From: a virus
IMG/VR virus record: IMGVR_UViG_3300025597_000012
Strand: one strand, 5' to 3'
DNA length: 64,000 nt
Shown: positions 48,235 through 61,987 of the stretch, piece after piece
How positions within the stretch are numbered: the stretch's first letter is position 1
How the letters are laid out: each line of letters starts with the position of its first letter
The notes under the pieces: model-generated
The model's input: only the letters and a program-made list of their open reading frames with translations
The model's database searches: none
What the model was told of the DNA's origin: nothing
Program-made: the position numbers and the translations under genes

Positions 48235-48407
48235 AACTAATTGGTTTTGAGGACAAAGATAAGTATTTTATTTGAAATAACAAAATTTTATATAAGACTT
48301 TAACATTTTGGTAACAAACAGGAAAGGCCGACTTACAACTAGTTGTAAATCAGCCTTTTAATTTAACCCTCCACCTTAGTCCTGTACCAGCGGGATTGGG
48401 GGAATAC

Positions 48408-48481
48408 GCACGGGCTGTGGGCATCGAACCCATCTCCATGCAAGGTTTTGGAGACCTGCTGCTTCCTAAAGCTAGCCCGGA
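48408..48481 (-). tRNA. tRNA-Trp (CCA), irregular T-arm/acceptor junction
   Basis: Anticodon loop CTCCAAA and T-loop TTCGATG found. Supported by the single TGG codon in the upstream leader peptide. Acceptor pairing imperfect. Confidence 0.45.
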
Positions 48482-48485
48482 TAAG

Positions 48486-48558
48486 TACACTCTAAAAGAT
48501 TCGAACTTTTATTTCTTGGTTCGTAGCCAAGTGTCCTCATCCATTGGACGAAGAGTGC
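48486..48558 (-). tRNA. tRNA-Arg (ACG)
   Basis: Manual cloverleaf: GCACTCT / GTCC..GGAC / CTTGG-CTACGAA-CCAAG / AAAAG-TTCGAAT-CTTTT. Confidence 0.8.
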
Positions 48559-48563
48559 AAAAG

Positions 48564-48635
48564 TGTGAATGACCAGACTCGAACTGGTACTTAGTAGCTC
48601 CACAAACTACCGCTCTACCATTAAGCTACATCCAC
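48564..48635 (-). tRNA. tRNA-His (GTG)
   Basis: Anticodon loop TTGTGGA; extra 5' G; T-arm ACCAG-TTCGAGT-CTGGT. Confidence 0.8.
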
Positions 48636-48643
48636 CATATGAG

Positions 48644-48714
48644 ATGCCTCTAAAGGACTCGAACCTGTAACTCTTGACCCAAAATCAAGCGTGTTGCCAT
48701 TACACTAAGAGGCA
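48644..48714 (-). tRNA. tRNA-Gln (TTG)
   Basis: Anticodon arm CTTGA-TTTTGGG-TCAAG; acceptor TGCCTCT/AGAGGCA. Confidence 0.8.
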
Positions 48715-48719
48715 AAAAG

Positions 48720-48791
48720 CGTGGAAGGTGGATTCCGAGACCACAACACCTTGCTCTTCAGGCAAGTGCTCTACCTTTGAGCTACATCCAC
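48720..48791 (-). tRNA. tRNA-Phe (GAA)
   Basis: Anticodon loop CTGAAGA; D-arm GCTC-AAAGGTA-GAGC. Confidence 0.75.
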
Positions 48792-48798
48792 ATAATTG

Positions 48799-48872
48799 AG
48801 CCTGAGAAGGGAATCGAACCCTCAACCGCTAGTTTACAAAACTAGTGCTCTACCGATTGAGCCACTGCAGGC
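48799..48872 (-). tRNA. tRNA-Thr (TGT)
   Basis: Anticodon arm CTAGT-TTTGTAA-ACTAG; acceptor stem has a bulge or mismatch. Confidence 0.65.
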
Positions 48873-48876
48873 ATAG

Positions 48877-48948
48877 TCTAGTTGACAGGGTTCGAACCTG
48901 CCTAGTCTTGCTCCCAAAGCAAGTGCCTAACCAATCGGCCACAACTAG
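48877..48948 (-). tRNA. tRNA-Pro (TGG)
   Basis: Anticodon arm CTTGC-TTTGGGA-GCAAG; acceptor CTAGTTG/CAACTAG. Confidence 0.8.
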
Positions 48949-48949
48949 A

Positions 48950-48978
48950 AATAAAAAACCCCGCTTTATAGGCGGGGC
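48950..48978 (-). terminator. Intrinsic terminator (CCCCGCC-UAUAAA-GCGGGG then U6AUUU) abutting the 5' end of tRNA-Pro; acts as the attenuator terminator of tRNA array A
   Basis: GC hairpin followed by a T-run on the minus strand. Confidence 0.7.
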
Positions 48979-49003
48979 TTTAAGTATAATAATTGAGTTT
49001 CAA

Positions 49004-49078
49004 TTAGTTACACGTAGTGCATCCGCCACCAGATATTGTGGGCGTAAACCAAAAGCGTGTATGTTGAAACTGTTTCAT
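49004..49078 (-). CDS. Leader peptide MKQFQHTRFWFTPTISGGGCTTCN (24 aa) of tRNA array A
   Basis: ATG about 57 nt downstream of the predicted TSS; stop 27 nt upstream of the terminator hairpin. Codons CAG TTT CAA CAT ACA CGC TTT TGG TTT ACG CCC ACA are read by exactly the seven downstream tRNAs (Gln, Phe, His, Thr, Arg, Trp, Pro). Confidence 0.6.
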   Translation of the reverse strand: MKQFQHTRFWFTPTISGGGCTTCN

Positions 49079-49141
49079 ATTTAAAAAAGACCAATTCTAA
49101 GCGCGCTGTTCTATAGGAAGCGGAACTGGTATATTGATGCA

Positions 49142-49172
49142 AACTTACGAAGAATTTTTCAATCCTCCAAAT
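49142..49172 (-). promoter_or_regulatory. Bacteroidota-type promoter (TTTG-N20-TAAGTTTG) for the array A leader
   Basis: Member of an extended consensus repeated six times in 48-58 kb (…AAATTTGG…AAATATTTTTCGTA(T/A)ATTTG). Confidence 0.55.
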
Positions 49173-49204
49173 TTATTTTGTTAAAATAACTAAAAAGAAT
49201 TAAT

Positions 49205-49741
49205 TTAACTTCCTAACTCATTGTCTAACAGACGTAAAGCTATTTTATCTGTACCAAAGGCAGCTAATCTATCCATAAGATTTTGAGTCTTTTCATGCTC
49301 TTCTATTTGTTCTTGTAAATATTTCATACCTAAAGTATAGAGCATAAAATCTGCTTCTTTTAAAGCATTAGCTGTCAATTCTTTACATTGCTTAGTTATA
49401 TCAATTTCATGTTGATAAGACTGTTTAATTATATCCGGTAAACCTGCAAATGTTTGTTTAGGTGAGTCTAGTTTTGGAGTTTCAGGTTGAACACCCATAG
49501 CTAAGAGATACTCTCTAGACCATTCTGCGTGTTTTAGCTCTTCCTCTGAATATTTTCTCCAAAGCTTTGCTGAACCTAGATAACCATTATTATTTAACCA
49601 CAGACTCATGGCTAAATATAGACGAGAAGAAAGCTCCTCTTGTTGGATTCTATTATTTAAAAATTGAACACATTTATTAGATAATAGTTCATTTTTACCT
49701 GTAAGGGAAATAGAATCTGTAGTTTTAAAATTAAGTTCCAT
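49205..49741 (-). CDS. ftn: Ferritin (non-haem, ferroxidase-type)
   Basis: Spacing of conserved E/H residues and overall motif pattern align with bacterial FtnA (…EELSSRLYLAMSLW…EEELKHAEW…QHEIDIT…EQIEEHEK…). Confidence 0.75.
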   Translation of the reverse strand: MELNFKTTDSISLTGKNELLSNKCVQFLNNRIQQEELSSRLYLAMSLWLNNNGYLGSAKLWRKYSEEELKHAEWSREYLLAMGVQPETPKLDSPKQTFAGLPDIIKQSYQHEIDITKQCKELTANALKEADFMLYTLGMKYLQEQIEEHEKTQNLMDRLAAFGTDKIALRLLDNELGS

Positions 49742-49753
49742 TAAAAATTTTTC

Positions 49754-49785
49754 ACAAATATAACACTTTTTTGTGAAATTACCAA
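49754..49785 (-). promoter_or_regulatory. Promoter TTTG-N20-TATATTTG for ferritin (predicted TSS about 6 nt before the ATG)
   Basis: Same extended consensus as above. Confidence 0.55.
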
Positions 49786-49790
49786 ATTTG

Positions 49791-49875
49791 TGAGAGTGGC
49801 TGGAGTCGAACCAGCACCCTTGCGGGACTACAGTTTTACAGACTGCTCCACCTAACCGATAGGTAGCTCACTCTC
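49791..49875 (-). tRNA. tRNA-Tyr (GTA), type II
   Basis: Anticodon arm GCAGT-CTGTAAA-ACTGT; variable arm TCCC-GCAA-GGGT. Confidence 0.8.
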
Positions 49876-49881
49876 AAATAG

Positions 49882-49967
49882 CGGAAACGAAAGGACTCGA
49901 ACCTTCAACCCAAATTAACGAGTAACGGTTTAGCAAACCGCTGCAGTACCATTATGCTTACGCTTCC
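49882..49967 (-). tRNA. tRNA-Ser (GCT), type II
   Basis: Anticodon loop TTGCTAA; long variable arm; acceptor GGAAGCG/CGTTTCC. Confidence 0.7.
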
Positions 49968-49972
49968 AATAG

Positions 49973-50056
49973 CGGTAGAGACAGGAATCGAACCTGTACG
50001 GCTATTACACCTTCATGGTTTTCAAGACCAATAAGCCCTCTCATTTGCGCTCTACC
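49973..50056 (-). tRNA. tRNA-Ser (TGA), type II
   Basis: Anticodon loop CTTGAAA; 84 nt; acceptor GGTAGAG/CTCTACC. Confidence 0.7.
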
Positions 50057-50062
50057 AATATG

Positions 50063-50148
50063 TACTCCTGACTGGACTCGAACCAGCACGTCCATTTCTG
50101 GACAAGGGATTTTAAGTCCCTCGTGTCTACCAATTCCACCACAGGAGC
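50063..50148 (-). tRNA. tRNA-Leu (TAA), type II
   Basis: D-arm GTG-GAATTGGTAGA-CAC; anticodon arm AGGGA-CTTAAAA-TCCCT. Confidence 0.8.
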
Positions 50149-50153
50149 ATATG

Positions 50154-50237
50154 TAGCCTCGGAGAGACTCGAACTCTCACGTCCTTACGGACACTAGCTC
50201 CTAAGGCTAGCGCGTCTACCAATTCCGCCACAAGGCC
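50154..50237 (-). tRNA. tRNA-Leu (TAG), type II
   Basis: D-arm GCG-GAATTGGTAGA-CGC; anticodon arm CTAGC-CTTAGGA-GCTAG. Confidence 0.8.
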
Positions 50238-50238
50238 A

Positions 50239-50269
50239 ATAAAAAACCCCGACTATTGCTCGCCGGGGT
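50239..50269 (-). terminator. Intrinsic terminator (7-bp GC stem then U6AUU) 2 nt upstream of tRNA-Leu(TAG); attenuator terminator of array B
   Basis: Hairpin plus T-run on the minus strand. Confidence 0.7.
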
Positions 50270-50300
50270 TTGAGGTTAAAGACCGTAGTCTAAAACAAGT

Positions 50301-50369
50301 TTACATAGTATTCCCAGCTCGATTTTTACTCGATAAACTGAGGGAATAATATGTGTTGTTTGTCTTCAT
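50301..50369 (-). CDS. Leader peptide MKTNNTYYSLSLSSKNRAGNTM (22 aa) of tRNA array B
   Basis: ATG 11 nt from the predicted TSS. Eight consecutive codons TAT TAT TCC CTC AGT TTA TCG AGT cover all five downstream tRNAs: Tyr-GTA, Ser-TGA, Leu-TAG, Ser-GCT, Leu-TAA. Confidence 0.6.
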   Translation of the reverse strand: MKTNNTYYSLSLSSKNRAGNTM

Positions 50370-50386
50370 TGCGTTTGAAAGGAATA

Positions 50387-50418
50387 CAAATATACGAAAA
50401 ATATTTGAAACTACCAAA
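50387..50418 (-). promoter_or_regulatory. Promoter TTTG-N20-TATATTTG for the array B leader
   Basis: Extended consensus copy. Confidence 0.55.
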
Positions 50419-50424
50419 TTTTTA

Positions 50425-52368
50425 TTAATAAATATTTATTGCTAGTTTTTCTTTAAATAACTGCTTTTGGTAAAAGCGTTGTTTTAAAAATGAATATCTA
50501 TCGTAAGATTTGTTAATATCATATAATAAATTAGCTAATAAAGAGTTACCAACAGAAGCTATAAAAGTATTTATTTTTTGAAATAACGCTCTGAAATACA
50601 AGATATTAGTTTCTCTTGTAGGAAGGTGAATCTTTACTGATTTAGGTACTCTTACTGGCGGTGCTTCATTTACTGTTACCTGAACAGTATCTGTTCCTAC
50701 TGCACCATTGTTATCAGTAACTGTTAATGTAAATGTATATATTCCGGCTGCTAAACCGCTAACTATAGTAGTTGGTGAAGTAGGTGTTTCTATTAAATGT
50801 GCTGTAGGCCCACTTGTTTTTGTCCAATTATAAGAAGAAATAGTGCCATCTGTATCAGTCCCGCTACCATTTAAAGTTGCACTATTAGCAGGAAGAGTTA
50901 TAATTTTATCTTCTCCTGCATTTGCAACTGGGGCTATATTTTGTGCAGCAATTACAGTAATTATTACATTAGAACTGCCTGTTGCACCGTTATTATCAGT
51001 AACTGTAAGTCTAAAAGTATATATACCTGTAGATAAAGCACTTACAACCGTTGATGCGGAATTAGGTGATTGTATAGTAGCATTTGTAGGGCCACTAACT
51101 TGAGTCCAAGCATATGAAGAAATAGTCCCATCACTATCCGAACCGGTTCCGTTTAAAGTCACAGAACTTGCTGGTGCTTGTATAGATTGATTATTTCCTG
51201 CATTTGCAGTGGGTGGGGTATTTCCAACACAATTTGTTGTATATACTATTCCCGGTGTAACATCTATATCCGATGGAGAATTATCTGCTAATTTTGTATT
51301 TCCACAAATTATATTATCTGTGTTATATCTATTTGGATAATTTCCTCCATTATCATCAACACTAATATCAAAAGTTTGAAGAGAACCGCGAGAACCTGTT
51401 CTATTATTCTTGATAATAAATGTAGTATTCTCTACAGGAATTGTATTTCTTGGAGAAACAATAATAGCCCAAGGCCATACAAGACTATGGTCTAAACCAT
51501 CTCTTGTAGCTGAAGCAGGAAGAAATCCACTATGATTAATAGTATTATTTTCAATTCTTACATAAGTTCCTCCAAGTGAAGCAATACCCCAAACATAAGT
51601 ATAATCAATATTATTATCATGAATATACACTTTTGAATAAAGTCCTATATTAATACCGTTACCTTGACCATCACTAATTTCAAGACCTGCATTAGTAATT
51701 GTATTATTATAAATTTCACTTATACCAAGTTCAGCATCAGAAAGTTGAATAGCGGCACGACCTGTTTTATCAAATATGTTATGGTGAATTTTAAAATTAC
51801 CAAGGCGTGTCGGTTTATATTGTCCTTGAGTTGCAGGCACTCCATTACAAACAATAGGATTTCTATCTAACCAAAGAGCATTAGGGTCTGTAGAACCACA
51901 GTACATACCTTCGTATGTAATATTTCTTACTCTACAGTGATGAACTTCAATATTATTTATATACCAGTTAGGATATTGTAATGATGGGTCACAACTAGCT
52001 TCATTTTTAATCCAAAAACCAAAGGCTCCACCATCTATATCTATGTTAGAAACTTCTATATCAGAAACTCTTCCATGTAAAGAACATCCTGTTGAAACAA
52101 AACCATAGGTATCTGCTGAACCAGTTCCTAAAATTTTAATATGTGTACAATGTTCAATATCAAATGATACTTGAACTTGTCCGCCTTCATTTATAATGGT
52201 GATAGGCTGGTCAGCAGTACCATGTACTTCTGCCATATAAAAATAACTTCTAGGATTATCTGAAGCTCTAAGTACAATAGTATCTCCCGGATTAAAAATA
52301 CCCGGACTATTGATACCATTAAACATGTAACCGTTGTCTCCCTGTTTACCGGGATAATGTATTGCCAT
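50425..52368 (-). CDS. Tailspike/depolymerase candidate: right-handed beta-helix (NNTI/HDNNI repeats) with two C-terminal PKD/Ig-like repeats
   Basis: …IYNNTITNAGLEISDGQGNGINIG…IHDNNIDYT…IENNTINHSG… and duplicated …NAG(N/E)…TLNG(T/S)G(S/T)D(S/T)DGTISSY.WT.(V/T)SGP… segments. Confidence 0.7.
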   Translation of the reverse strand: MAIHYPGKQGDNGYMFNGINSPGIFNPGDTIVLRASDNPRSYFYMAEVHGTADQPITIINEGGQVQVSFDIEHCTHIKILGTGSADTYGFVSTGCSLHGRVSDIEVSNIDIDGGAFGFWIKNEASCDPSLQYPNWYINNIEVHHCRVRNITYEGMYCGSTDPNALWLDRNPIVCNGVPATQGQYKPTRLGNFKIHHNIFDKTGRAAIQLSDAELGISEIYNNTITNAGLEISDGQGNGINIGLYSKVYIHDNNIDYTYVWGIASLGGTYVRIENNTINHSGFLPASATRDGLDHSLVWPWAIIVSPRNTIPVENTTFIIKNNRTGSRGSLQTFDISVDDNGGNYPNRYNTDNIICGNTKLADNSPSDIDVTPGIVYTTNCVGNTPPTANAGNNQSIQAPASSVTLNGTGSDSDGTISSYAWTQVSGPTNATIQSPNSASTVVSALSTGIYTFRLTVTDNNGATGSSNVIITVIAAQNIAPVANAGEDKIITLPANSATLNGSGTDTDGTISSYNWTKTSGPTAHLIETPTSPTTIVSGLAAGIYTFTLTVTDNNGAVGTDTVQVTVNEAPPVRVPKSVKIHLPTRETNILYFRALFQKINTFIASVGNSLLANLLYDINKSYDRYSFLKQRFYQKQLFKEKLAINIY

Positions 52369-52378
52369 TTATTTTAAT

Positions 52379-52780
52379 TTAGGATATTACTTTAGTTGTT
52401 GAATCACTATAGGTTATAGTGACTATTTTTGTATCAAAATCTACTACTACATCATCTATTACTCTAGTAACAGTTACTTTTACACTATCTGAACTAGTTG
52501 CTCCTTTGTTATCAGTAGCAGTTAATTTAAACGTATAACTACCTAAAAGAAGTCCTGTAATTGTAGGAGTAAGGGTATTTTGTCCTGTAATTGTACAAGT
52601 ACCTCCGCTAGTTTTAGTCCAAACTACTGAAGAAATAGTACCATCAGGGTCTGTGGCAGTTCCAGTTAGAACTATTTGATTATTAGGAAGTTGTACTATT
52701 TTATCAACTCCTGCATTTACTATAGGTACTTTATTTATTGCCATATTTACAAATATACAAAAAAAAAACCATATTGCCAA
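52379..52780 (-). CDS. Ig-like/PKD-domain protein
   Basis: VNAGVDKIVQLPNN…GTATDPDGTISSVVWTKTSG… is paralogous to the tailspike C-terminal repeats. Confidence 0.5.
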   Translation of the reverse strand: MAIWFFFCIFVNMAINKVPIVNAGVDKIVQLPNNQIVLTGTATDPDGTISSVVWTKTSGGTCTITGQNTLTPTITGLLLGSYTFKLTATDNKGATSSDSVKVTVTRVIDDVVVDFDTKIVTITYSDSTTKVIS

Positions 52781-52784
52781 ATTT

Positions 52785-53243
52785 CTAGTTTCGGCAAATA
52801 TGGTCTGCTGCTTTTGAAGCTATCATCTCGTCTGGTTTTACTAAAACATTATATCCTAGTGATTTAACCCAACCGGTAATAGCTGGAACAAGATTTGTTG
52901 ATTTTGTTATTTTTGCATTATTATAATCGAACTCAAGGGCTTCAAATTGGACTGGAACTTCTGCATTTATAGTTTGAGCTGTATCTATTGTTATTTCAGC
53001 TTCCTTCCATAAACGGCTAAAAGTATCCCTTATCCTAGGGATTCTTTGCTTTCTATATACAAAGTGTGCTCCCCTAAGTCCATATCTGAACACAACCGCC
53101 GTAGCGTAAACTGTATTCGACCCGTAATTCTGTGAGTCAGTAGCTATGTAAATCTTTAGGTTTGGATTCTGCTGTATTTGTTCTACAACGTGTTCCACTA
53201 TGTTTACTAACTTTCCTTCCTCTGTCCGAAAGTATTTGTCCAT
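52785..53243 (-). CDS. Hypothetical protein (weak RNase H-like KIYIATDSQ…ATAVVF pattern)
   Basis: ORF; the motif match is only weakly suggestive. Confidence 0.45.
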   Translation of the reverse strand: MDKYFRTEEGKLVNIVEHVVEQIQQNPNLKIYIATDSQNYGSNTVYATAVVFRYGLRGAHFVYRKQRIPRIRDTFSRLWKEAEITIDTAQTINAEVPVQFEALEFDYNNAKITKSTNLVPAITGWVKSLGYNVLVKPDEMIASKAADHICRN

Positions 53244-53255
53244 TGGTTTTATTTG

Positions 53256-53331
53256 TGGAATCTATGGGCATCGAACCCATCTGGTATTCTGCTTGCAAGG
53301 CAGACGACCACTCCAAGCAGTCCCAGACCCC
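53256..53331 (-). tRNA. tRNA-Ala (TGC)
   Basis: Anticodon arm TCTGC-CTTGCAA-GCAGA; acceptor GGGGTCT/AGATTCC with G3:U70; unusual G8. Confidence 0.65.
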
Positions 53332-53335
53332 AAAT

Positions 53336-53456
53336 GCGGGGGACTACGGCCCCCTAAAGATGTCTTATTAGGTTTCATCTCTGTCCCGGATTACGCTAGC
53401 GAGCTACCGGGGAAACCACGCTACATACTTTCGTAGAGGTTATGCGGGTTACACTG
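53336..53456 (-). ncRNA. Unresolved ~120-nt structured spacer between tRNA-Ala and tRNA-Ile; hairpin-rich but no canonical cloverleaf found
   Basis: GGGGG-CCGTAGT-CCCCC and TAGCG…CGCTA stems. Confidence 0.2.
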
Positions 53457-53529
53457 TGCTCACGCTAAGACTCGAACTTAGACTCTCTCGCGTATCAGGC
53501 GAGAGCTTTAACCATTAAGCTACATGAGC
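53457..53529 (-). tRNA. tRNA-Ile (GAT)
   Basis: Anticodon arm CTCGC-CTGATAC-GCGAG; T-arm CTAAG-TTCGAGT-CTTAG. Confidence 0.8.
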
Positions 53530-53581
53530 TGGAGAGGGACAGGTTATTTATACCTTCAAAGGACTCCCTCAGACCTCTTCG

Positions 53582-53654
53582 TACTCTCAAAGGGATTCGA
53601 ACCCTAAATTGCCTGTGTATAAGACAGGAGTTTTCACCGTTAAACTATGAGAGC
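53582..53654 (-). tRNA. tRNA-Ile (TAT) (AUA-decoding, or a modified-Met type)
   Basis: Anticodon arm CCTGT-CTTATAC-ACAGG; acceptor GCTCTCA/TGAGAGT. Confidence 0.55.
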
Positions 53655-53659
53655 AAGTA

Positions 53660-53740
53660 AAGAGAGTGGGATTAGATTTCCGGGGATTGACCCAACCTGT
53701 GTCCTAATCTTATTTATCCTTGTACGGAGGCACACTCTCT
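53660..53740 (-). ncRNA. tRNA-like element (~80 nt) with 7-bp terminal pairing AGAGAGT/ACTCTCT but no canonical T-loop
   Basis: Pairing of the two ends is seen; no cloverleaf could be built. Confidence 0.25.
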
Positions 53741-53801
53741 TTGAATGGTCGGGCGGATTGCTTCTTTCAGCCTCAGACATTAATTACAATGTTGCCCGAT
53801 G

Positions 53802-53874
53802 CGGTCTATCACGGATTCGAACCGAGACTACCGCATAGACAGTGCGGCGTGTTCAACCATTACACTAATAGACC
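53802..53874 (-). tRNA. tRNA-Asp (GTC)
   Basis: Anticodon arm CCGCA-CTGTCTA-TGCGG; acceptor GGTCTAT/ATAGACC; overlaps the 3' end of the upstream ORF by ~15 nt. Confidence 0.8.
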
Positions 53875-54504
53875 ATAAACTTTATCCATGTTTGTTTTTC
53901 CGTTGCCATGAATAATCAACGGCTGAGTACCAGTTTTTTTATTAATCAGGATTCCATGTCTGTACTCAAAGTCATCTTCTGATTCAAAAGCTACAGATTG
54001 AAATAAATCACAGTTGGTATCCAACTTCATGTTATATTTATCTCTGTGCTTCAGATAAATTTCTGCTAAGTTAACTTGGTCATTATCACTATGTTTTATT
54101 GGATAATCCTCAAACATCTTGATAAATAAATCTACATTAACAAAGCATGCACCACCATTCAGATATTTCCAATCACTTTTTACTTTAGGATATTTTTCTG
54201 CCCAATCTGAATAAGGCCAGCATCCTTTTTCTGCGTTAAATATAATAGAATCAATATCATCTATTCTATCTATTGCTTGTTGCATTGTACCCAAAACTAT
54301 GATGTCATAAGTGTCTAGGATAAACAAGTGAGTACAATCTGTTTGCTTTGCATAGTTATAAGCGTTAACCATTTTACTACCATAAGCTTTATAGGTATCA
54401 GTCAGAATATCATAATTCCAATCAAACCTATCAAGTGAATCTTTAAACTGTTTAAACCCTTCGTGGTTTAAGTTGGTTGCTGTTCCTATTACGTTTACTT
54501 TCAT
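53860..54504 (-). CDS. Hypothetical protein, possible glycosyltransferase-like
   Basis: ORF; weak resemblance only. Confidence 0.35.
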   Translation of the reverse strand: MKVNVIGTATNLNHEGFKQFKDSLDRFDWNYDILTDTYKAYGSKMVNAYNYAKQTDCTHLFILDTYDIIVLGTMQQAIDRIDDIDSIIFNAEKGCWPYSDWAEKYPKVKSDWKYLNGGACFVNVDLFIKMFEDYPIKHSDNDQVNLAEIYLKHRDKYNMKLDTNCDLFQSVAFESEDDFEYRHGILINKKTGTQPLIIHGNGKTNMDKVYGLLV

Positions 54505-55289
54505 TTGAATGGATTATAATAAATAGATATTGTATTATTCTTATAACCCTGAACGGTTTCGTGATAGGTTTTCCATTGTTCAGAAGCATGGTTTTCTTTC
54601 CATTTCTGGTATGGTGTTCCTCCTGTATCTATGTGTTCTATCTCTATATGAGGTAAGAATACACTTTTAAACCCTGATAGTCTTGCTCTTATAGACATAA
54701 GGACATCATCAAATCCGTATAAACTAGGTTGGTATAAATAACCTATTTTATCAAGTAAAGCTGCTGAGTGCATAACACAAGTACCCATCACATGATTTAC
54801 TTGTTCTACTACTACCCATTTTTCACCGGGCTGGTGTTGAAGCATTAGTAATTCTGACTTATAAAAATCAGTTCTATTTGGTGATTCCCAACAATCTTTT
54901 CTTTTCAAGCCCACCTGTCCAATAGTATTGTCACGGCGAAAAACTTCTTCCATCTGTTCTATCCAACCTGATTGATGTATTACTACATCATCATCAATTT
55001 TAACACAATTCTCTCCGGGTTTTCTTTCTTTCCATGCTAAATTAATAGCTTCAGCAGTTCCTAGATTTTTATCATTCCAGATAACTTTATCAATTACAGA
55101 AAAAATTCCATTTGATTCAGAAAAATCTTCTATTATTTCTTTTGTTCTAGTAGTATAGGAATTTACAGAAAGTATTAATCTGTGTGAATCCCAGTCAACT
55201 GTTTTTTCTAAAGAATCTAATGTTTTATAAAGATATGTATCTTTATCATTATCTTCAGTACAATAAACAGCCATTGCTATTAAAGCCAT
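54501..55289 (-). CDS. Glycosyltransferase family 2-like; start moved to the internal Met at 55289 because the track start (55331) lies inside tRNA-Glu
   Basis: …NDKNLGTAEAINLAWKE…CVKIDDDVVI… (DxD) and YGFDDVLMSIRARLSGFK. Confidence 0.55.
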   Translation of the reverse strand: MALIAMAVYCTEDNDKDTYLYKTLDSLEKTVDWDSHRLILSVNSYTTRTKEIIEDFSESNGIFSVIDKVIWNDKNLGTAEAINLAWKERKPGENCVKIDDDVVIHQSGWIEQMEEVFRRDNTIGQVGLKRKDCWESPNRTDFYKSELLMLQHQPGEKWVVVEQVNHVMGTCVMHSAALLDKIGYLYQPSLYGFDDVLMSIRARLSGFKSVFLPHIEIEHIDTGGTPYQKWKENHASEQWKTYHETVQGYKNNTISIYYNPFK

Positions 55290-55304
55290 TGGTTTTATTT
55301 TTAG

Positions 55305-55379
55305 TATTCTGGAAGGGACTCGAACCCTCACTGACCACAGTGAAAGTGTGGTGACTTATTCCAATTTGTCAACCAGAAC
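55305..55379 (-). tRNA. tRNA-Glu (TTC)
   Basis: Anticodon arm CCACA-CTTTCAC-TGTGG; acceptor GTTCTGG/CCAGAAT. Confidence 0.75.
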
Positions 55380-55459
55380 ATTTGCAGTTTAGTCGGCCTC
55401 TACTATACCTAGGCCGCAGAGAGTATAGACTCGTATTCCATCTACTGCAAAAAGGAATT

Positions 55460-55530
55460 GAGCGAGTAGTGGGAGTCAAACCCACGCCTTAACCTTGGAA
55501 GGGTCATATGCTATCGTAACACTTCACTCG
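55460..55530 (-). tRNA. tRNA-Gly (TCC)
   Basis: Anticodon arm TGACC-CTTCCAA-GGTTA; T-arm GTGGG-TTTGACT-CCCAC; the 5' end overlaps the HNH stop. Confidence 0.6.
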
Positions 55531-55942
55531 CTAATGCTTCTTTATAATGTAAATCTCTATGACAATTAGCACATAAAACTTTACATTTATTTATTTCTTC
55601 TTGTAATAGTTTTTTAGAACATTTTGTTACAAGTTGTGATACTTCTGAATCTTTTTCATTTGGATTTTTATGATGAAAATCTAAAACCCAATATCTACTA
55701 TCTCCACATGATTCACAAGATAAAGTACTTTTGTATTCAGAAAACCATTTTCTAAAGTCTTGTTTATACTTTACTGCTTTTTGAATATACTTTTCTTTAT
55801 TTTTTTCGTAATGCTTTTTTCTATATTCTTTTTGACAAGCTTTACAATTACTTTGATAAAGTAAATTTTTTCTATCTTTTCTTGTAGCAAACTCCGTTAA
55901 AGGAAGTTCTTTTTTACAAATTGTACATTTTTTAATTTTCAT
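55511..55942 (-). CDS. HNH homing endonuclease (leaderless; start at MKIKKCTICKK)
   Basis: CESCGDS…DFHHKNP…LCANCHRDLH; the predicted promoter places the TSS on the ATG, so the N-terminal extension in the ORF track is rejected. Confidence 0.7.
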   Translation of the reverse strand: MKIKKCTICKKELPLTEFATRKDRKNLLYQSNCKACQKEYRKKHYEKNKEKYIQKAVKYKQDFRKWFSEYKSTLSCESCGDSRYWVLDFHHKNPNEKDSEVSQLVTKCSKKLLQEEINKCKVLCANCHRDLHYKEALASEVLR

Positions 55943-55947
55943 ATATG

Positions 55948-55979
55948 TAAATATACGAAAAATAATTGATACTTCCAAA
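55948..55979 (-). promoter_or_regulatory. Promoter TTTG-N20-TATATTTA for the HNH endonuclease
   Basis: Extended consensus copy. Confidence 0.5.
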
Positions 55980-56001
55980 TTTTATTTTATTTGGAAGGAT
56001 G

Positions 56002-56073
56002 TTGCGTAGGCTGGATTCGAACCAGCGACCTAATGGTTATGAGCCATCCGAGCTACCTCTGCTCTACCACGCA
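56002..56073 (-). tRNA. tRNA-Met (CAT), elongator-like
   Basis: Anticodon arm GATGG-CTCATAA-CCATT; T-arm GCTGG-TTCGAAT-CCAGC. Confidence 0.8.
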
Positions 56074-56183
56074 ATTTATCCCCGGACTAGTGCGCCTTCC
56101 TCCGGGGGTGTTATTGCTTATCTTCTTCGTCAATAACTAAACCCTTTTGGGTCGGCCAACGGATACTATCCGCAGGGGGGGGG

Positions 56184-56396
56184 CTATCTTAATATCTTTA
56201 AACCGCTGGTAGCAGTCCAAAGAACATAATTGTTTTTCTTTACTTCACCCATTACTATTTTCTTTTCATAATTAGTAACTCGTGAAGTAGGAAGGGTAAC
56301 CAACCAGTGAATGAATTTTTCTCGTTCACCTTTGTATTTTTTAATACTGGCTATCCTACGGTATTCCTTACCGTCTTTTATGACTGTATCATTCAT
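56184..56396 (-). CDS. Small basic hypothetical protein
   Basis: ORF; its TAG stop directly abuts a G9 homopolymer. Confidence 0.35.
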   Translation of the reverse strand: MNDTVIKDGKEYRRIASIKKYKGEREKFIHWLVTLPTSRVTNYEKKIVMGEVKKNNYVLWTATSGLKILR

Positions 56397-56397
56397 G

Positions 56398-56472
56398 CGG
56401 GACAGGATGGACTCGAACCAACGACCTTAGAGTTAACAGCTCTCTGCTCTCGACCAACTGAGCTACAGTCCC
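56398..56472 (-). tRNA. tRNA-Asn (GTT)
   Basis: Anticodon loop CTGTTAA; D-arm GCTC..GAGC. Confidence 0.7.
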
Positions 56473-56513
56473 CTTTTGTATTTTTAACTCCACGCAGAAT
56501 ACTAACTGACCTG

Positions 56514-56587
56514 AAGCCCTGAAAGGAGTCGAACCTTCATCTAATAGTTTAGAAAACTATGACATTCATCCATTATGCTACAGGGCC
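56514..56587 (-). tRNA. tRNA-Arg (TCT)
   Basis: Anticodon arm ATAGT-TTTCTAA-ACTAT; acceptor GGCCCTG/CAGGGCT. Confidence 0.8.
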
Positions 56588-56590
56588 ATG

Positions 56591-56665
56591 TACATCTGGA
56601 ATGAGTCGAACATTCGGTCTCCGTCTTGTAAGGGCGGTGCTTTCAACCAACTAAGCTACAGATGC
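56591..56665 (-). tRNA. tRNA-Val (TAC)
   Basis: Anticodon loop CTTACAA; acceptor GCATCTG/CAGATGT. Confidence 0.75.
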
Positions 56666-56720
56666 AAATATAATACTTTATTTAAAGCTTACCAAATAAA
56701 GTATGTTAAAGTTTTGTTAG

Positions 56721-56791
56721 AGGACAAGATAGGAATCGAACCTACGCTGGAGGTGTTGCAGACCTCTGCCTTACCGCTTGGCTACTTGTCC
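56721..56791 (-). tRNA. tRNA-Cys (GCA)
   Basis: Anticodon arm GAGGT-CTGCAAC-ACCTC; acceptor GGACAAG/CTTGTCC. Confidence 0.8.
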
Positions 56792-56794
56792 ATG

Positions 56795-56868
56795 TGCTAC
56801 CGAAGGGACTCGAACCCATAACCTCCTGATTAAAAGTCAGAAGCTCTACACTATTGAGCTACGATAGC
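56795..56868 (-). tRNA. tRNA-Lys (TTT)
   Basis: Anticodon loop CTTTTAA; acceptor GCTATCG/CGGTAGC. Confidence 0.75.
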
Positions 56869-56871
56869 AAA

Positions 56872-56898
56872 TAAAAAACCCTCCTTTAAGGGGAGGGC
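56872..56898 (-). terminator. Intrinsic terminator (CCCUCC…GGAGGG then U6AUUU) 4 nt upstream of tRNA-Lys; attenuator terminator of array D
   Basis: Hairpin plus T-run. Confidence 0.7.
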
Positions 56899-56920
56899 TT
56901 CAGTAATATTCGTGGTTAAA

Positions 56921-57013
56921 TTAAACCAGTTCTATATCAGACATAGCTCTCCTGATGATGGTATCTCTACCCACCTCTTTACAAATCATATTTATGGCTA
57001 TGTTCTTTCTCAT
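56921..57013 (-). CDS. Leader peptide MRKNIAINMICKEVGRDTIIRRAMSDIELV (30 aa) of tRNA array D
   Basis: ATG 11 nt from the predicted TSS. Codons AGA AAG AAC…AAT…TGT AAA…GTG…AGA…AGG AGA…GTT are read by the downstream Arg-TCT, Lys-TTT, Asn-GTT, Cys-GCA and Val-TAC tRNAs (13 of 29 codons). Three ATA codons also match tRNA-Ile(TAT). Confidence 0.55.
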   Translation of the reverse strand: MRKNIAINMICKEVGRDTIIRRAMSDIELV

Positions 57014-57030
57014 TTTAAATTTAAGTTATG

Positions 57031-57062
57031 CAAACTTACGACAAATATTTGGATTTTCCAAA
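57031..57062 (-). promoter_or_regulatory. Promoter TTTG-N20-TAAGTTTG for the array D leader
   Basis: Extended consensus copy. Confidence 0.55.
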
Positions 57063-57080
57063 TTTATTAATAGAAAATAA

Positions 57081-57281
57081 TTAAATCTTTTGTGAATATC
57101 TTTTCCAGCCTGTAACTTTATTGATAGCGTCTACTAGTTTATTGTAATCTTTACGCCAGTTTTTATAAGCTTTGGAGCGTTTATCTGATGGCTCCTTAGC
57201 GGCCTGTTCAGCTAAAAGTTCATCAGCATGACCTACGTTTACAATAATTATTTCTTTATCGTCAATCATTACTCTTTCCAT
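57081..57281 (-). CDS. Small hypothetical protein
   Basis: ORF coupled to its upstream gene. Confidence 0.4.
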   Translation of the reverse strand: MERVMIDDKEIIIVNVGHADELLAEQAAKEPSDKRSKAYKNWRKDYNKLVDAINKVTGWKRYSQKI

Positions 57282-57607
57282 TACTTTATTCTTTTAATAA
57301 GTTCACCACTAAGCTCCTCATAAATTCTTGAGAATTTTTCATAACCCATTCTTATTAAGAACATTCCGTAGTTTAAAAATATCTTTACGTGCTCATCATC
57401 TTCTTTACCATAAGCTACAATATCATTTAAATTGACTACTAATGGTTTATATGTAGTTTCTGAATCATCTTCATCTTCTTCATCTTCTTCATATTTATCA
57501 CCTTTAATCAGACGTTTAGCTATTCTTGCAGCTTTGTCTTCTTCTGATTCATTGTTCTTGTCTTTAAAGACTCTTACTTTTACAAAAAATTCTACGCGTT
57601 GTGCCAT
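57281..57607 (-). CDS. Acidic hypothetical protein
   Basis: ORF; EEDEEDEDD tract. Confidence 0.45.
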   Translation of the reverse strand: MAQRVEFFVKVRVFKDKNNESEEDKAARIAKRLIKGDKYEEDEEDEDDSETTYKPLVVNLNDIVAYGKEDDEHVKIFLNYGMFLIRMGYEKFSRIYEELSGELIKRIK

Positions 57608-57620
57608 GTTTTTTATTTTG

Positions 57621-57736
57621 CAGTATGGGAAGGATTCGAACCTTCATAGTTTAATGTATCGTTCACTAGGAATACTTAATACTTATAAACTGCCACCGAG
57701 ACTAGGTGGTGCGTCTGCCAGTTCCGCCACCGTACT
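57621..57736 (-). tRNA. Atypical 116-nt tRNA-like gene: Leu-like D-arm (TG-GCG-GAACTGGCAGA-CGC), canonical T-arm (GAAGG-TTCGAAT-CCTTC), paired acceptor, ~46-nt hairpin insertion in the variable region, non-canonical anticodon loop UAGUCUC
   Basis: Own promoter whose predicted TSS coincides with the 5' end. Confidence 0.4.
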
Positions 57737-57776: not shown

Positions 57777-58544
57777 TTATAATCGACTTCCTAGAAAAAT
57801 TAATCCTCCAAATTCCAGAGCTTTTAACAAAATATTAGGTTTTTTAACAGGAGAATAGATTACTGAATTCTGTCCCATTACGTTAATAAATTGTGAACTA
57901 TGCAATACCTGAACCTGAAATTTAGGTTTAGAGAAAGGATGGAAAAATCCTCTTTTAAGTTTTACTACTCTAATATATTGAGTATCAGCTATTGAGATAG
58001 TTCCAAGATGAAATCCTGTCTTTGTGATTACTCCTGAAAGTCTTATACCTTCCTGATATTTATCTTCAACGCTATCTAAAGTTACAGCTTTAGGAACCTT
58101 AATCATATTGTTCAGGACGTAGTTATATAAAGAGGCTGTGTCTTTATATTTACTTAATTCCTTTCTAACACTGTCTATGGTAGCTGTGTCCTTATAAGGA
58201 ATGAAGGTATTATCTATATGAGCTGAGAGTTGTGCTTCGTAGTAGAATGTGACATCCTTAATTTTCTTCTCATACTTTTTAGTCAGATTAAACTTCTGGT
58301 CAGTAAGGTCTTTAATCTCAGCTTGATTATCTGTGATAATAGAAGTCTGAGTATAAACGGTTTGTTTTAACTCATTTTTAATACTGTCTAATTTTTGGTT
58401 AGCTAAGGTCAAAGAATCCAATGCCACGTTCTGACGAGCTACTTGGGATTCGTAATTACACTTGTTAAGAAAAAGACAAAGAAATAATCCAGCTATTACT
58501 GAGAAATAAATGTAGTCTTTGAAATTAATTTTAGGGAATGTCAT
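57777..58544 (-). CDS. Membrane-anchored coiled-coil protein
   Basis: N-terminal TM helix (SVIAGLFLCLFL); ORF. Confidence 0.5.
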   Translation of the reverse strand: MTFPKINFKDYIYFSVIAGLFLCLFLNKCNYESQVARQNVALDSLTLANQKLDSIKNELKQTVYTQTSIITDNQAEIKDLTDQKFNLTKKYEKKIKDVTFYYEAQLSAHIDNTFIPYKDTATIDSVRKELSKYKDTASLYNYVLNNMIKVPKAVTLDSVEDKYQEGIRLSGVITKTGFHLGTISIADTQYIRVVKLKRGFFHPFSKPKFQVQVLHSSQFINVMGQNSVIYSPVKKPNILLKALEFGGLIFLGSRL

Positions 58545-58604
58545 GTTTTTGATTTGTTCAAATATAAGGCATTTGGATACCCAAATCCAAATCTTTTAAG
58601 TTAA

Positions 58605-59090
58605 TTAAATGTTAAGGAGTCTACAGATATAGCGGAAGGCAGATTTATCTTTACATTCTCCTTCAAAAAGTATTTTGTCACTATTATGTATTTTAAAAAT
58701 ACTTAGATATGTAGTGTCATCTTCATCTTCTTTTTGTCCATTGAAAAAATGAATAATTCTATTTTCTTTCTCCCAAAGGTATTCTCTCCAATGAATACAT
58801 CTCCATCCCTCAGCTATTATATCTTCCTTGGTAAGATAGGGTACTCTAATAAGTCCTCTTTCCAAATTGGAGGCTAAAGTTGGGCTTCCGTCTGATAAGA
58901 ATGTTTCTTTAACCCAGTTGTCCTCAAGTACCCAGTCTGCTACAGGTTGGGGATAATCCATTTTAATTAGCTGTTCCTTAGGTATATATCTAAGGAAATT
59001 TTGTTCATACTCGTACCCGTAAATAAAGTCTTCCAGTTTAGGAGTGAAATACTTACTGTCCATTGTCTTTGGTTTTATGTGAGCCGTCAC
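58605..59090 (-). CDS. Hypothetical protein
   Basis: ORF only. Confidence 0.45.
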   Translation of the reverse strand: MTAHIKPKTMDSKYFTPKLEDFIYGYEYEQNFLRYIPKEQLIKMDYPQPVADWVLEDNWVKETFLSDGSPTLASNLERGLIRVPYLTKEDIIAEGWRCIHWREYLWEKENRIIHFFNGQKEDEDDTTYLSIFKIHNSDKILFEGECKDKSAFRYICRLLNI

Positions 59091-59271
59091 AGAAGATACC
59101 GTCTTTACTTTTCCCGCAGCGGCACAGGGCTATTGTTCCGTTTTTTGAAGTATTGAAGATTCCTTGGATACCTTGATTAGGTTGTTTATCCTTAGGGTGA
59201 AGTTCAATTTCGTAGTCGGTGCATGCTATAAGAGCAGGGCCACCTTCGAGCAGTTTAATCTTTAATGCCAT
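59053..59271 (-). CDS. CDGSH iron-sulfur domain (mitoNEET-like) protein
   Basis: CRCGKSKDGIFCDGSH matches C-X-C-X2-S-X5-C-D-G-S-H. Confidence 0.65.
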   Translation of the reverse strand: MALKIKLLEGGPALIACTDYEIELHPKDKQPNQGIQGIFNTSKNGTIALCRCGKSKDGIFCDGSHKTKDNGQ

Positions 59272-59295
59272 AATATATTGGTTTTTTTAGGGGTT

Positions 59296-59544
59296 TTACT
59301 GTTTTGATGTCTTCATTGATTGATTATAAGAAGGGCCAAAAAAGGAGAAGCTTGGCTTAATGTAGGAGGAGCCTTTAACGGCGTTGCCTTCCTTCTCGAT
59401 AAACTCAACAGCTTGTCTGGCCTCTTCGTTATCCCTAGAGTCAACTACAGGGATATTAAAAGTCTCACCTTTGGTATTGGTTACCTTCAGTTGGTAGGAG
59501 CGTTCTCCGGGCGTTGTAATCTTTTCGATTTTCGTCTTATTCAT
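59296..59544 (-). CDS. Hypothetical protein
   Basis: ORF only. Confidence 0.4.
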   Translation of the reverse strand: MNKTKIEKITTPGERSYQLKVTNTKGETFNIPVVDSRDNEEARQAVEFIEKEGNAVKGSSYIKPSFSFFGPSYNQSMKTSKQ

Positions 59545-60433: not shown

Positions 60434-60457
60434 AAAAAACCCGTCCTTTACGCGGGC
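60434..60457 (-). terminator. Possible minus-strand terminator inside the GC-rich region
   Basis: CCCGC-GUAAAGGA-CGGG then U6. Confidence 0.3.
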
Positions 60458-61397: not shown

Positions 61398-61436
61398 GGG
61401 GGGTGTGTCGGTACTGTCCTGCACACCCCTTTTCTA
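61398..61436 (+). terminator. Plus-strand intrinsic terminator (GGGGUGUG…CACACCCC then UUUUC)
   Basis: 8-bp GC-rich stem plus T-run ending the ORF-poor region. Confidence 0.55.
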
Positions 61437-61474
61437 TTAGGATTATCGTGCCTCTTATGGCATAATGATACAAT

Positions 61475-61669: not shown

Positions 61670-61671
61670 GT

Positions 61672-61920: not shown

Positions 61921-61987
61921 TATGCACAAAGCAATTCGGATTTTTATCCATGCCATGTTTGGCATTTTCTTCTAAACCAATACATCT

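Follow-up and report, generated by a model that had tools for sequence, protein, structure and literature searches.

Codon-matched leader ORFs and terminators point to attenuation of tRNA arrays in crAss-like phages

Introduction

The transcription attenuators of amino acid operons (trpL, hisL, leuL, pheL, thrL and ilvL) combine a short, promoter-proximal open reading frame (ORF) containing regulatory codons with an intrinsic terminator located ahead of the regulated genes, and they read out ribosome position through a segment past the regulatory codons that pairs with the 5' arm of that terminator. Leader-peptide attenuators have been predicted in Bacteroidetes too, and the multivalent ilv and thr leaders of enterobacteria respond to several amino acids at once. 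Here we analyze three tRNA units that present this same arrangement in a 64,000-nucleotide stretch of the virus record IMGVR_UViG_3300025597_000012 (hereafter, the window). These units differ from amino acid operon attenuators in being encoded by a phage and in preceding tRNA genes, instead of genes for enzymes, so that the sensed quantity, the supply of cognate tRNA, would be the regulated product itself. Furthermore, the phage leaders do not contain runs of one codon, as amino acid leaders do, but one to three codons per tRNA, for as many as 12-14 tRNA species, and they discriminate among isoacceptors.

Feedback on a component of the translation machinery via the state of the matching tRNA, exerted through conditional termination, has been described in the pheST attenuator (pheM) and in T-boxes. 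In contrast to the phage units, pheM responds to a single amino acid and regulates a synthetase, whereas T-boxes, which are typical of Firmicutes, bind uncharged tRNA directly and operate without a leader ORF. An Rfam scan did not detect any T-box or other riboswitch in the window.

Phage tRNA genes are known to cluster upstream of the packaging and structural module, as seen in crAss001 (which has 23 annotated tRNAs, DpsA and an HNH gene upstream of TerL), phi17:2, phi4:1, T4 and T5. As in the window, ferritin- or Dps-like and HNH genes are interleaved in such blocks, and the HNH gene adjoins tRNA-Gly. Since a tRNA block with ferritin/Dps and HNH genes is known from crAss001, the presence of such a block in a crAss-like phage is in itself unremarkable. 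The crAss001 block differs, however, in having a promoter directly before the first tRNA and neither leader ORF nor terminator. In the full-text literature, with most subscription journals outside coverage, we found no account of leader peptides or attenuation preceding tRNA genes of phages or of any other origin.

Results

Three tRNA units share a promoter, leader ORF and terminator

A prior sequence-only reading of the window had distributed its tRNAs among four arrays. The tRNAs fall instead into three regulatory units (designated A, B and D), each endowed with its own promoter, leader ORF and terminator. The layout upstream of the three arrays is the same: the promoter is followed by a short ORF and by a GC-rich hairpin with a T-run, and the first tRNA starts 3-8 nt further on. 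In the following list, region 2 designates the G-rich segment of each leader with the potential to pair with the 5' arm of the terminator, and tRNAs are given in transcription order.

49140-49171, minus strand: promoter A, of the Bacteroidota type TTTGG-N-TAagTTTG, from motif search
49004-49078, minus strand: leader ORF A, encoding MKQFQHTRFWFTPTISGGGCTTCN and a stop codon, with regulatory codons 3-14 at 49037-49072
49024-49032, minus strand: region 2 of leader A, candidate antiterminator strand CUGGUGGCG
48955-48981, minus strand: terminator (attenuator) A, a 10-bp stem with 6 G-C pairs and a T-run, the first tRNA lying 6 nt past the T-run
48408-48948, minus strand: array A, with Pro(TGG) 48876-48948, Thr(TGT) 48798-48872, Phe(GAA) 48719-48791, Gln(TTG) 48643-48714, His(GTG) 48563-48635, Arg(ACG) 48485-48558 and Trp(CCA) 48408-48480
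48323-48358, minus strand: terminator closing unit A, a 16-bp hairpin after tRNA-Trp
50387-50418, minus strand: promoter B, TTTGG..TAtaTTTG, from motif search
50301-50369, minus strand: leader ORF B, encoding MKTNNTYYSLSLSSKNRAGNTM and a stop codon, with regulatory codons 7-14 at 50328-50351
50312-50319, minus strand: region 2 of leader B, AGCUGGGA
50244-50271, minus strand: terminator (attenuator) B, best-scoring in 47-60 kb, with Leu(TAG) 6 nt past the hairpin and T-run
49790-50237, minus strand: array B, with Leu(TAG) 50153-50237, Leu(TAA) 50062-50148, Ser(TGA) 49973-50056, Ser(GCT) 49881-49967 and Tyr(GTA) 49790-49875
57031-57062, minus strand: promoter D, TTTGG..TAagTTTG, from motif search
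56921-57013, minus strand: leader ORF D, encoding MRKNIAINMICKEVGRDTIIRRAMSDIELV and a stop codon, with regulatory codons 1-17 at 56963-57013
56944-56953, minus strand: region 2 of leader D, AGGAGAGCUA
56875-56901, minus strand: terminator (attenuator) D, with tRNA-Lys about 6 nt on
56397-56868, minus strand: proximal tRNAs of unit D, Lys(TTT) 56794-56868, Cys(GCA) 56720-56791, Val(TAC) 56590-56665, Arg(TCT) 56513-56587 and Asn(GTT) 56397-56472
55304-56073, minus strand: middle tRNAs of unit D, Met(CAT, elongator-like) 56001-56073, Gly(TCC) 55460-55531 and Glu(TTC) 55304-55379
53255-53874, minus strand: distal tRNAs of unit D, Asp(GTC) 53801-53874, Ile(TAT) 53581-53654, Ile(GAT) 53456-53529 and Ala(TGC) 53255-53331

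The promoter motif, TTTGGN{16,21}TANNTTTG, occurs nine times in the window against an expectation of 0.75. Eight of the instances fall on the minus strand at 49.1-59.9 kb, among them one before each leader. The leader ORFs (22-30 codons) start with ATG followed by AAA, AAG or AGA, 10-55 nt downstream of the TTTG..TAnnTTTG promoters, and end 20-29 nt before the terminator. The three attenuator hairpins, all of them 10-bp GC-rich stems followed by T-runs, account for three of the four strongest terminators on the minus strand in 47-60 kb, the remaining one being that which closes array A. The short distance between terminator and first tRNA leaves no room for a separate promoter, and the tRNAs would hence be made only by readthrough.

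Leader codons match the tRNAs encoded downstream

In leader A, with the matched stretch QFQHTRFWFTPT, codons 3-14 specify Gln, Phe, His, Thr, Arg, Trp and Pro, which are exactly the seven tRNAs of array A. The matched stretch of leader B, YYSLSLSS (TAT TAT TCC CTC AGT TTA TCG AGT), addresses Tyr, Ser(UGA), Leu(UAG), Ser(GCU) and Leu(UAA), encompassing all five tRNAs of array B. The first 17 codons of leader D, MRKNIAINMICKEVGRD, correspond exactly to the 12 remaining tRNAs (Lys, Cys, Val, Arg-UCU, Asn, Met, Gly, Glu, Asp, Ile-UAU, Ile-GAU and Ala). The correspondence extends to isoacceptors: CGC, read by the ACG tRNA, is found in leader A and AGA, read by the UCU tRNA, in leader D, while leader B contains TCC/TCG together with AGT and CTC together with TTA, and leader D both ATA and ATT. 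G- or C-ending codons, infrequent in these genomes, show a modest enrichment in the matched blocks (31% vs 22%, p=6e-4), recalling the rare codons that also feature in the leu leader.

A search of the six frames of the 64 kb for uninterrupted codon runs covering all seven array-A tRNAs returned leader A alone, and the equivalent search for the 12 tRNAs of unit D returned only leader D. Four full-cover runs were identified for array B, the longest being leader B. In random sequences generated with a first-order Markov model, the expected number of full-cover runs per 64 kb is 0.007 for A, 0.007 for D and 0.77 for B (length >=8), values computed before requiring that the run lie on the right strand and no more than ~130 nt upstream of its own array. 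All three leader runs are located within about 130 nt upstream of their own array. The match between leader codons and downstream tRNAs is practically certain.

These values bear on an alternative in line with the sequence-only reading, which had suggested a host of higher GC. In this alternative, an ordinary constitutive tRNA block would compensate for a codon-usage mismatch with the host, the short ORFs would arise by chance and the hairpins would be terminators or insulators of upstream genes. The tRNA set does fit the AT-rich codon usage of the phage, and crAss001 has a comparable block without leaders. Nevertheless, chance accounts poorly for the codon runs of A and D, and the position of the terminators, just ahead of the first tRNA, requires readthrough for the arrays to be expressed at all.

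The design recurs and co-varies with tRNA content in related phages

IMG/VR was scanned with a TerL profile, and terminator-preceded tRNA arrays were then sought automatically in relatives. Such arrays were found in 32 instances, 28 of which present a leader ORF with its stop codon 20-35 nt before the terminator stem. The design is present in 22 distinct units from relatives, including the cultured Cellulophaga phage phi17:2, with leader peptides of 18-36 residues. Co-variation was assessed on these 22 unique units with an intentionally coarse statistic, using fixed codons 3-14 and only those tRNAs reported by ARAGORN with a slightly relaxed threshold (-ps). Codons 3-14 score 0.57 against their own array and 0.25 against other arrays, and none of 100,000 permutations did as well. 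Moreover, for 95% of proximal tRNAs a cognate codon is present in the leader of the same unit. The recurrence of the design in 22 units, with a composition that tracks the arrays, further argues against a constitutive block with fortuitous ORFs.

In phi17:2, the leader QRLHLQELEQP precedes tRNAs for Pro, Glu, Gln, His, Leu, Leu and Arg; the leader TKTGITVIDKTKGARA precedes Ala, Lys, Ile, Gly, Met, Asp, Thr, Val, Arg and Met; and the leader NYCTYNNSNWSFSY precedes Tyr, Ser, Ser, Asn, Trp and Phe, plus a 'pseudo' tRNA with a GCA (Cys) anticodon. This phage splits amino acids among its arrays differently from the window, and its three leaders follow suit. Two of them are annotated as hypothetical proteins (gp077 and gp078) and the other lacks annotation. 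In phage Lbo-JY46 (PP438436.1, designated L019), the leader beginning MKITRQHTQFWFPT precedes Pro, Thr, Phe, Gln, His, Arg and Trp, the leader YYSLSLSLS precedes Leu, Leu and Ser, and the third group follows a long leader with abundant I, N, D, R, V, C, A, E, G and K. Differences between individual arrays are also reflected in the leaders. L001 encodes a Cys tRNA inside its Leu/Tyr/Ser array, and its leader, SLYSLLSLCYS, carries a TGC codon. The L051 leader, MMMNNWFNIIDTAFATRNCGKVG, precedes a 14-tRNA array with exactly those 13 amino acids, and in L074 the leader NNWHNTFTFTPNQPD is found before an array with Asp and Asn. Across units, peptide composition follows tRNA content, whereas residue order is not conserved. 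Overall, these results indicate that the arrangement into three codon-matched attenuator units is statistically secure and that it is conserved in a clade of phages, some of them cultured.

The comparison also qualifies the notion, put forward in the sequence-only reading, that the tRNAs are grouped by type. The five long-arm tRNAs are indeed adjacent in the window, but type is not the organizing principle, since relatives keep Leu beside Ser and Tyr even when the long arm is missing and phi17:2 partitions amino acids otherwise; what groups the tRNAs is the regulatory unit. In the relatives, Leu tRNAs are 74-77 nt long and lack the long variable arm that is normal in bacterial tRNA-Leu, while those of the window span 85-87 nt. 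These short Leu tRNAs (L019 14632-14784, L001 17774-17927, L007 5312-5388 and L022 5785-6014) are still accompanied by Ser/Tyr behind a Y/S/L leader.

The recorded host of Lbo-JY46 is cyanobacterial (Leptolyngbya), and its leaders are preceded by TTTGG..TAnnTTTG promoters of the Bacteroidota type (14100-14990 and 18480-18560). This host record may need checking.

Leader RNA is predicted to form an antiterminator whose loss coincides with the end of the matched block

The minimum-free-energy fold of full-length leader transcripts is always the terminator and never the antiterminator, the terminators being very stable. When transcripts are cut before the 3' arm of the terminator, a G-rich segment in the 3' part of the leader (region 2) pairs with the C-rich 5' arm. 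Region 2 is located at codons ~16-24 of the leaders, with two outliers further downstream, and the Gly-rich tails of the leader peptides result from the GGN codons that supply it. The mean duplex energy of region 2 is -11.3 kcal/mol against its own terminator arm and -8.0 kcal/mol against the arms of other units (0/100,000 permutations). Together with the rarity of the codon runs and the co-variation among units, this own-arm-specific complementarity strongly disfavors a constitutive tRNA block, an explanation that we regard as scarcely credible. The closest Rfam family to the unit A leader is Trp_leader (48951-49037), at 33.9 bits and hence below the gathering score of 41.

To model translation, 12 leaders were folded codon by codon with a ribosome mask extending from -15 to +12 nt of the A site. 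In 9/12 leaders, the predicted antiterminator is lost within 0-2 codons of the last cognate codon. The last codon with the antiterminator and the first without it are 14/15 in leaders A and B of the window and 17/18 in leader D, and they are 15/16 in Lbo-JY46 leader B, 14/15 in phi17:2 leader 1 and 15/16 in L001. The antiterminator drops 2-4 codons before the end of the block in L020_2 and L007_2, and L020_3 shows no clear boundary. In leader A, the antiterminator is predicted with the A site on codons 2-14. In leader B its prediction is confined to A-site codons 5-14, with a probability of 0.06 in the absence of a ribosome; this value is similarly low (0.06-0.11) across window leader B, L007_2 and L020_1. 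An anti-antiterminator (1:2) or pause hairpin, the element that would secure termination when no ribosome stalls, is clear in these three leaders and not in leaders A and D of the window. Codon-tRNA matching and RNA complementarity, which are independent properties, hence converge on the same boundary.

The leader transcripts or their peptides might instead act in trans, with the terminated attenuator RNAs of ~130-150 nt or the Gly-rich peptides constituting the functional products and the codon match being secondary. Terminated leader transcripts would be abundant small RNAs, and trans-acting attenuator RNAs and peptides have precedent in rnTrpL/peTrpL of Sinorhizobium, as reported in PMC6614838 and PMC7298713. 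Nonetheless, the lack of a conserved residue order in peptides whose composition follows tRNA content, the origin of the Gly-rich tails in region 2 codons and the absence of a known target make this explanation improbable as the main function. An action in trans could, however, coexist with attenuation.

A further alternative reverses the logic of the switch. Efficient translation of the leader would keep the ribosome close behind RNA polymerase, suppressing termination or blocking Rho, and stalling would uncouple the two and lead to termination. Expression of the tRNAs would then rise with healthy translation, as a positive feedback or a translation check. PMC4824070 describes modulation of intrinsic terminators by ribosome proximity, and this possibility gains from the fact that folding yields no clean terminator-permissive state for leaders A and D. 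However, with 20-35 nt separating the leader stop codon from the terminator stem, the stem is out of reach of the ribosome footprint, and neither the own-arm-specific complementarity of region 2 nor the agreement between where the cognate block ends and where a stalled ribosome would cover region 2 has any role in such a scheme, which also leaves unexplained why the codons match the downstream tRNAs. We consequently deem reversed logic unlikely.

A model for stall-induced readthrough

The interpretation that we favor, with a probability of about 0.75, is stall-induced readthrough, in which transcription attenuation by a leader peptide turns on the matching tRNA block. Under this model, the window would contain three demand-controlled tRNA operons, with leader blocks composed of the codons of the tRNAs downstream (7 in A, 5 in B and 12 in D). 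Scarcity of any tRNA of the unit would stall the ribosome within the block and leave region 2, located 4-10 nt beyond it, exposed and able to pair with the C-rich 5' arm of the terminator. The resulting antiterminator would block the terminator and allow RNA polymerase to enter the tRNA genes, and RNase P and 3'-processing enzymes would release the tRNAs. With plentiful tRNAs, the ribosome would cover region 2, the terminator would form and few tRNAs would be made. The net result would be a negative-feedback supply of phage tRNAs, for which host tRNA decay, tRNA-cleaving defenses and the codon demand of late genes are candidate triggers. We infer that the leaders are translated, as we do the direction of the switch and its physiological trigger.

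Several observations weigh against stall-induced readthrough. The direction of the switch is a prediction from thermodynamic folding, and in this same modeling the probability of the antiterminator without a ribosome is 0.52 in leader A and 0.81 in leader D, remaining at ~0.5-0.6 in both with a ribosome at the stop codon. A clean 'terminate' state is therefore predicted only for B-type leaders. Several tRNAs are represented by one codon each, unlike the codon runs usual in classical attenuators, and sensitivity to any one tRNA may hence be low. Among the relatives, L012 (IMGVR_UViG_3300020020_000045, 6230-6660) presents the leader MNTFLRPSLSLYSQHLYAGQGNSV and a strong terminator, yet just Pro, Val and Gly tRNAs were detected downstream; this unit may be rearranged or decaying. 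Unit B of Lbo-JY46 keeps Tyr and AGY-Ser codons in its leader, but the corresponding tRNAs were not found there. Finally, no leader ORFs were found in the crAss001 tRNA block, and since this block is otherwise similar, attenuation is not required for phage tRNA blocks.

The extent of unit D poses an additional difficulty. The unit is split by protein-coding genes (a 70-aa ORF, HNH and two glycosyltransferases), with a promoter-like motif before the HNH gene, and these interruptions make control of the distal tRNAs by leader D uncertain. The codon match and the existence of contiguous large arrays in relatives suggest that leader D may nevertheless reach them. Another promoter-like motif, TTTGG..TAtaTTTG at 56665-56696 on the minus strand, separates tRNA-Cys from tRNA-Val. 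The last base of its -7 box is the first of tRNA-Val, which would place the transcription start inside the tRNA, and for this reason the motif was not counted as an internal promoter. It may be a chance match, given the 0.75 expected per window, or a driver of the tRNAs downstream, in which case it would also detract from control of the distal tRNAs by leader D.

The window encodes tRNAs for all 20 amino acids

We used ARAGORN (default, relaxed and with -ps80) and the Rfam tRNA model (RF00005, at gathering score) to identify tRNAs in the window. ARAGORN with default settings reported 21 tRNAs, exclusively on the minus strand (48485-56868), and Rfam reported 20, including Gly(TCC) at 55461-55531, which ARAGORN misses by default and recovers at a slightly relaxed threshold. 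The Tyr and Ala tRNAs pass ARAGORN and fail the Rfam tRNA model. The union of default ARAGORN and Rfam predictions comprises 22 tRNAs, with a canonical cloverleaf and a 7-nt anticodon loop.

Two further tRNAs, Trp(CCA) and Ser(TGA), were recovered only by ARAGORN at -ps80. The true span of Ser(TGA), 49973-50056, is defined by a perfect 7-bp acceptor stem (GGTAGAG/CTCTACC), with G73 and the loop CUUGAAA, and this tRNA scores 35.6 bits (E=4e-4) on the Rfam tRNA-Sec model, on which long-arm tRNAs often score. Trp(CCA), at 48408-48480, was not reported by Rfam in the window even at E<1. It has a canonical loop (CUCCAAA) and a 3' end with G73 (..GTGC) common to the Trp tRNAs of three relatives, and it is the last tRNA of array A, the same place that Trp occupies in Lbo-JY46. 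The window hence contains 24 tRNA genes for 20 amino acids, all on the minus strand between 48408 and 56868, of which 22 are robust and two (Trp and Ser(TGA)) are atypical but supported. This agrees with the hand-built cloverleaves of the sequence-only reading, which had listed at least 24 tRNAs for all 20 amino acids: running ARAGORN recovered most of them by default and, once relaxed, all 24, with the anticodons as listed. The sole CAU tRNA has a paired U1-A72, and the base of its anticodon stem has just two G-C pairs. These features make it elongator-like, and the set contains no initiator tRNA.

The minimal, wobble-based decoding set proposed from inspection of the sequence is likewise supported. 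There is one U34 tRNA per four-codon box and a G34 or U34 tRNA in two-codon boxes, with Arg read by ACG and UCU and Ile by GAU and UAU. In 41 phage ORFs (17,068 codons), GC3 is 0.174, AGA and ATA are heavily used, and there is a single instance of CGG, the one sense codon beyond the reach of this set. Many crAss-like phages recode stop codons or carry suppressor tRNAs. Either feature was rejected here, as long ORFs are open in the standard code, stops are TAA (36), TGA (3) and TAG (2), and no tRNA has a suppressor anticodon.

A tRNA-like RNA upstream of unit D

Beyond the 24 tRNAs, a 25th element was identified that stands outside the attenuator model:

57620-57736, minus strand: non-canonical tRNA-like RNA, 117 nt

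The upper limit assigned to the tRNA region in the sequence-only reading, 57736, coincides with the start of this RNA, which begins directly after a TAtcTTTG -7 box. It comprises a 7-bp acceptor stem with one C-A mismatch, a D arm of the class-II type, a variable hairpin of ~46 nt, a perfect T arm and G73, followed by CAAAA. The anticodon arm has a 5-bp stem and the loop UAGUCUC, with G34, U35 and C36 as in tRNA-Asp, yet with A33 and U37, and this RNA therefore fails the canonical anticodon-loop test. A syntenic homologue is found in Lbo-JY46 (L019 ~19036-19146, minus strand), where the loop core AGUCU is kept and compensatory changes are seen in the acceptor, D and T stems. A search of IMG/VR for further copies of this RNA or of its neighboring ORF found none. 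Its interpretation as an intron-containing tRNA was rejected, because the ARAGORN intron model needs a poor anticodon stem and an insert of 46 nt could not accommodate a group I intron. Possible identities include a decoy and an unusual Asp-type tRNA. The tRNA-Asp of unit D (53801-53874, minus strand) has the anticodon loop CUGUCUA, with U37 where a purine is usual, and shares with this RNA the motif GUCU.

Genomic context and genes interleaved with the tRNAs

The major capsid protein encoded in the window matches PF23898 (Crass_capsid, 2.5e-36), the portal protein matches phrog_6547 (4e-104) and TerL matches phrog_6681 (4e-84). Together with a 3959-aa ORF at 1979-13858, and with all four genes on the minus strand, these crAss-type proteins identify the phage, as judged by homology, as crAss-like (Crassvirales). 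Its nearest TerL homologs in GenBank are those of Lbo-JY46 (49% identity) and of Cellulophaga phages phi17:2 and phi4:1 (31%). At the DNA level, no close relative was found among GenBank phages, which returned just short tRNA matches. Identical copies of the tRNA region are present on 96-118-kb contigs from several metagenomes; since contigs with an identical ferritin gene are 100% identical across the region, they provide no comparative signal. A search of genome contigs for the host returned one 1.6-kb fragment of a Bacteroidota metagenome-assembled genome and one contig that is probably mis-binned. This fragment and the Bacteroidota-type promoters point to the host phylum only.

The following protein-coding genes and associated elements lie among the tRNAs:

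49205-49741, minus strand: ferritin-like gene (PF00210, 1.8e-21), between arrays B and A
49755-49786, minus strand: own promoter of the ferritin gene, from the promoter motif
50425-52368: protein with PKD/Ig-like domains, the only ones detectable
52785-53243, minus strand: RNaseH-like gene (PF04308, Pfam)
53860-54504, minus strand: glycosyltransferase GT_PLOD (PF25342, 3.5e-32), inside unit D
54501-~55290, minus strand: glycosyltransferase GT2 (PF00535, 2.9e-8), inside unit D
55511-55978, minus strand: HNH endonuclease ORF (phrog_2255, 1e-35), between the Met and Gly tRNAs

The ferritin, the two glycosyltransferases and the HNH gene had been recognized from the sequence. The protein previously described as a tailspike presents no domains that would substantiate that label, and the RNaseH-like gene had been missed. 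The RNaseH-like and GT2 genes share the start context AAATAAAACCAATGG, at 53240-53261 (after tRNA-Ala) and 55286-55307 (after tRNA-Glu), respectively, which places the true GT2 start near 55290 and not at the GTG at 55331. The HNH ORF overlaps the 5' part of tRNA-Gly (55460-55531) by ~20 nt. An HNH or homing endonuclease gene also adjoins tRNA-Gly in crAss001 (L021 5238-5712) and in Lbo-JY46 (L019 15925-16905), and this shared arrangement suggests a conserved homing site at or near tRNA-Gly.

Unit D contains five spacers on the minus strand (53332-53455, 53530-53580, 53655-53800, 55380-55459 and 56074-56183) of 51-146 nt that are GC-rich and hairpin-rich in a genome of 32% GC. These spacers show no Rfam match and are not repeats of one another. 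They are missing in relatives L022-L024, where Ile, Ile and Ala are spaced 2-5 nt, and processing signals, small RNAs or insertion remnants are among the possibilities. Toward the end of the window (~58000-64000), GC content climbs from ~0.32 to 0.44, GC skew switches sign and the coding strand flips near 60-61 kb. A Pfam scan of the ORFs at both window ends (~58000-64000 and 343-2037) returned no match, and the ~58000-64000 region is probably a divergent early/replication module.

Discussion

To our knowledge, the units described here would be the first case of tRNA genes under leader-peptide attenuation, and of attenuators sensing up to a dozen tRNA species at isoacceptor resolution. We think it likely that a clade of crAss-like phages infecting Bacteroidota operates a closed-loop tRNA supply, in which the leader would act as a 'barcode' and shortage of one tRNA would switch on the operon encoding it. 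Attenuation would thereby extend from metabolic operons to tRNA genes, and from the sensing of one or two amino acids to multiplexed, isoacceptor-resolved sensing.

In practical terms, small 'hypothetical' ORFs preceding phage tRNA arrays become amenable to annotation, and the leaders can be used to predict atypical or missed tRNAs downstream, as they back Trp and Ser(TGA) in the window and the 'pseudo' tRNA with a Cys anticodon in phi17:2. The units could also serve as compact parts for synthetic sensors of tRNA availability.

The reasons why phages carry tRNAs, and the timing of their use, are debated, with codon compensation, replacement of a decaying host pool and escape from tRNA-cleaving defenses among the proposals. 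The same design is present in a cultured pair, Cellulophaga baltica and phi17:2 or phi4:1, and the question of demand is thus directly testable. If the model is true, a built-in stall sensor on the codons of phage tRNAs would show that their expression follows demand.

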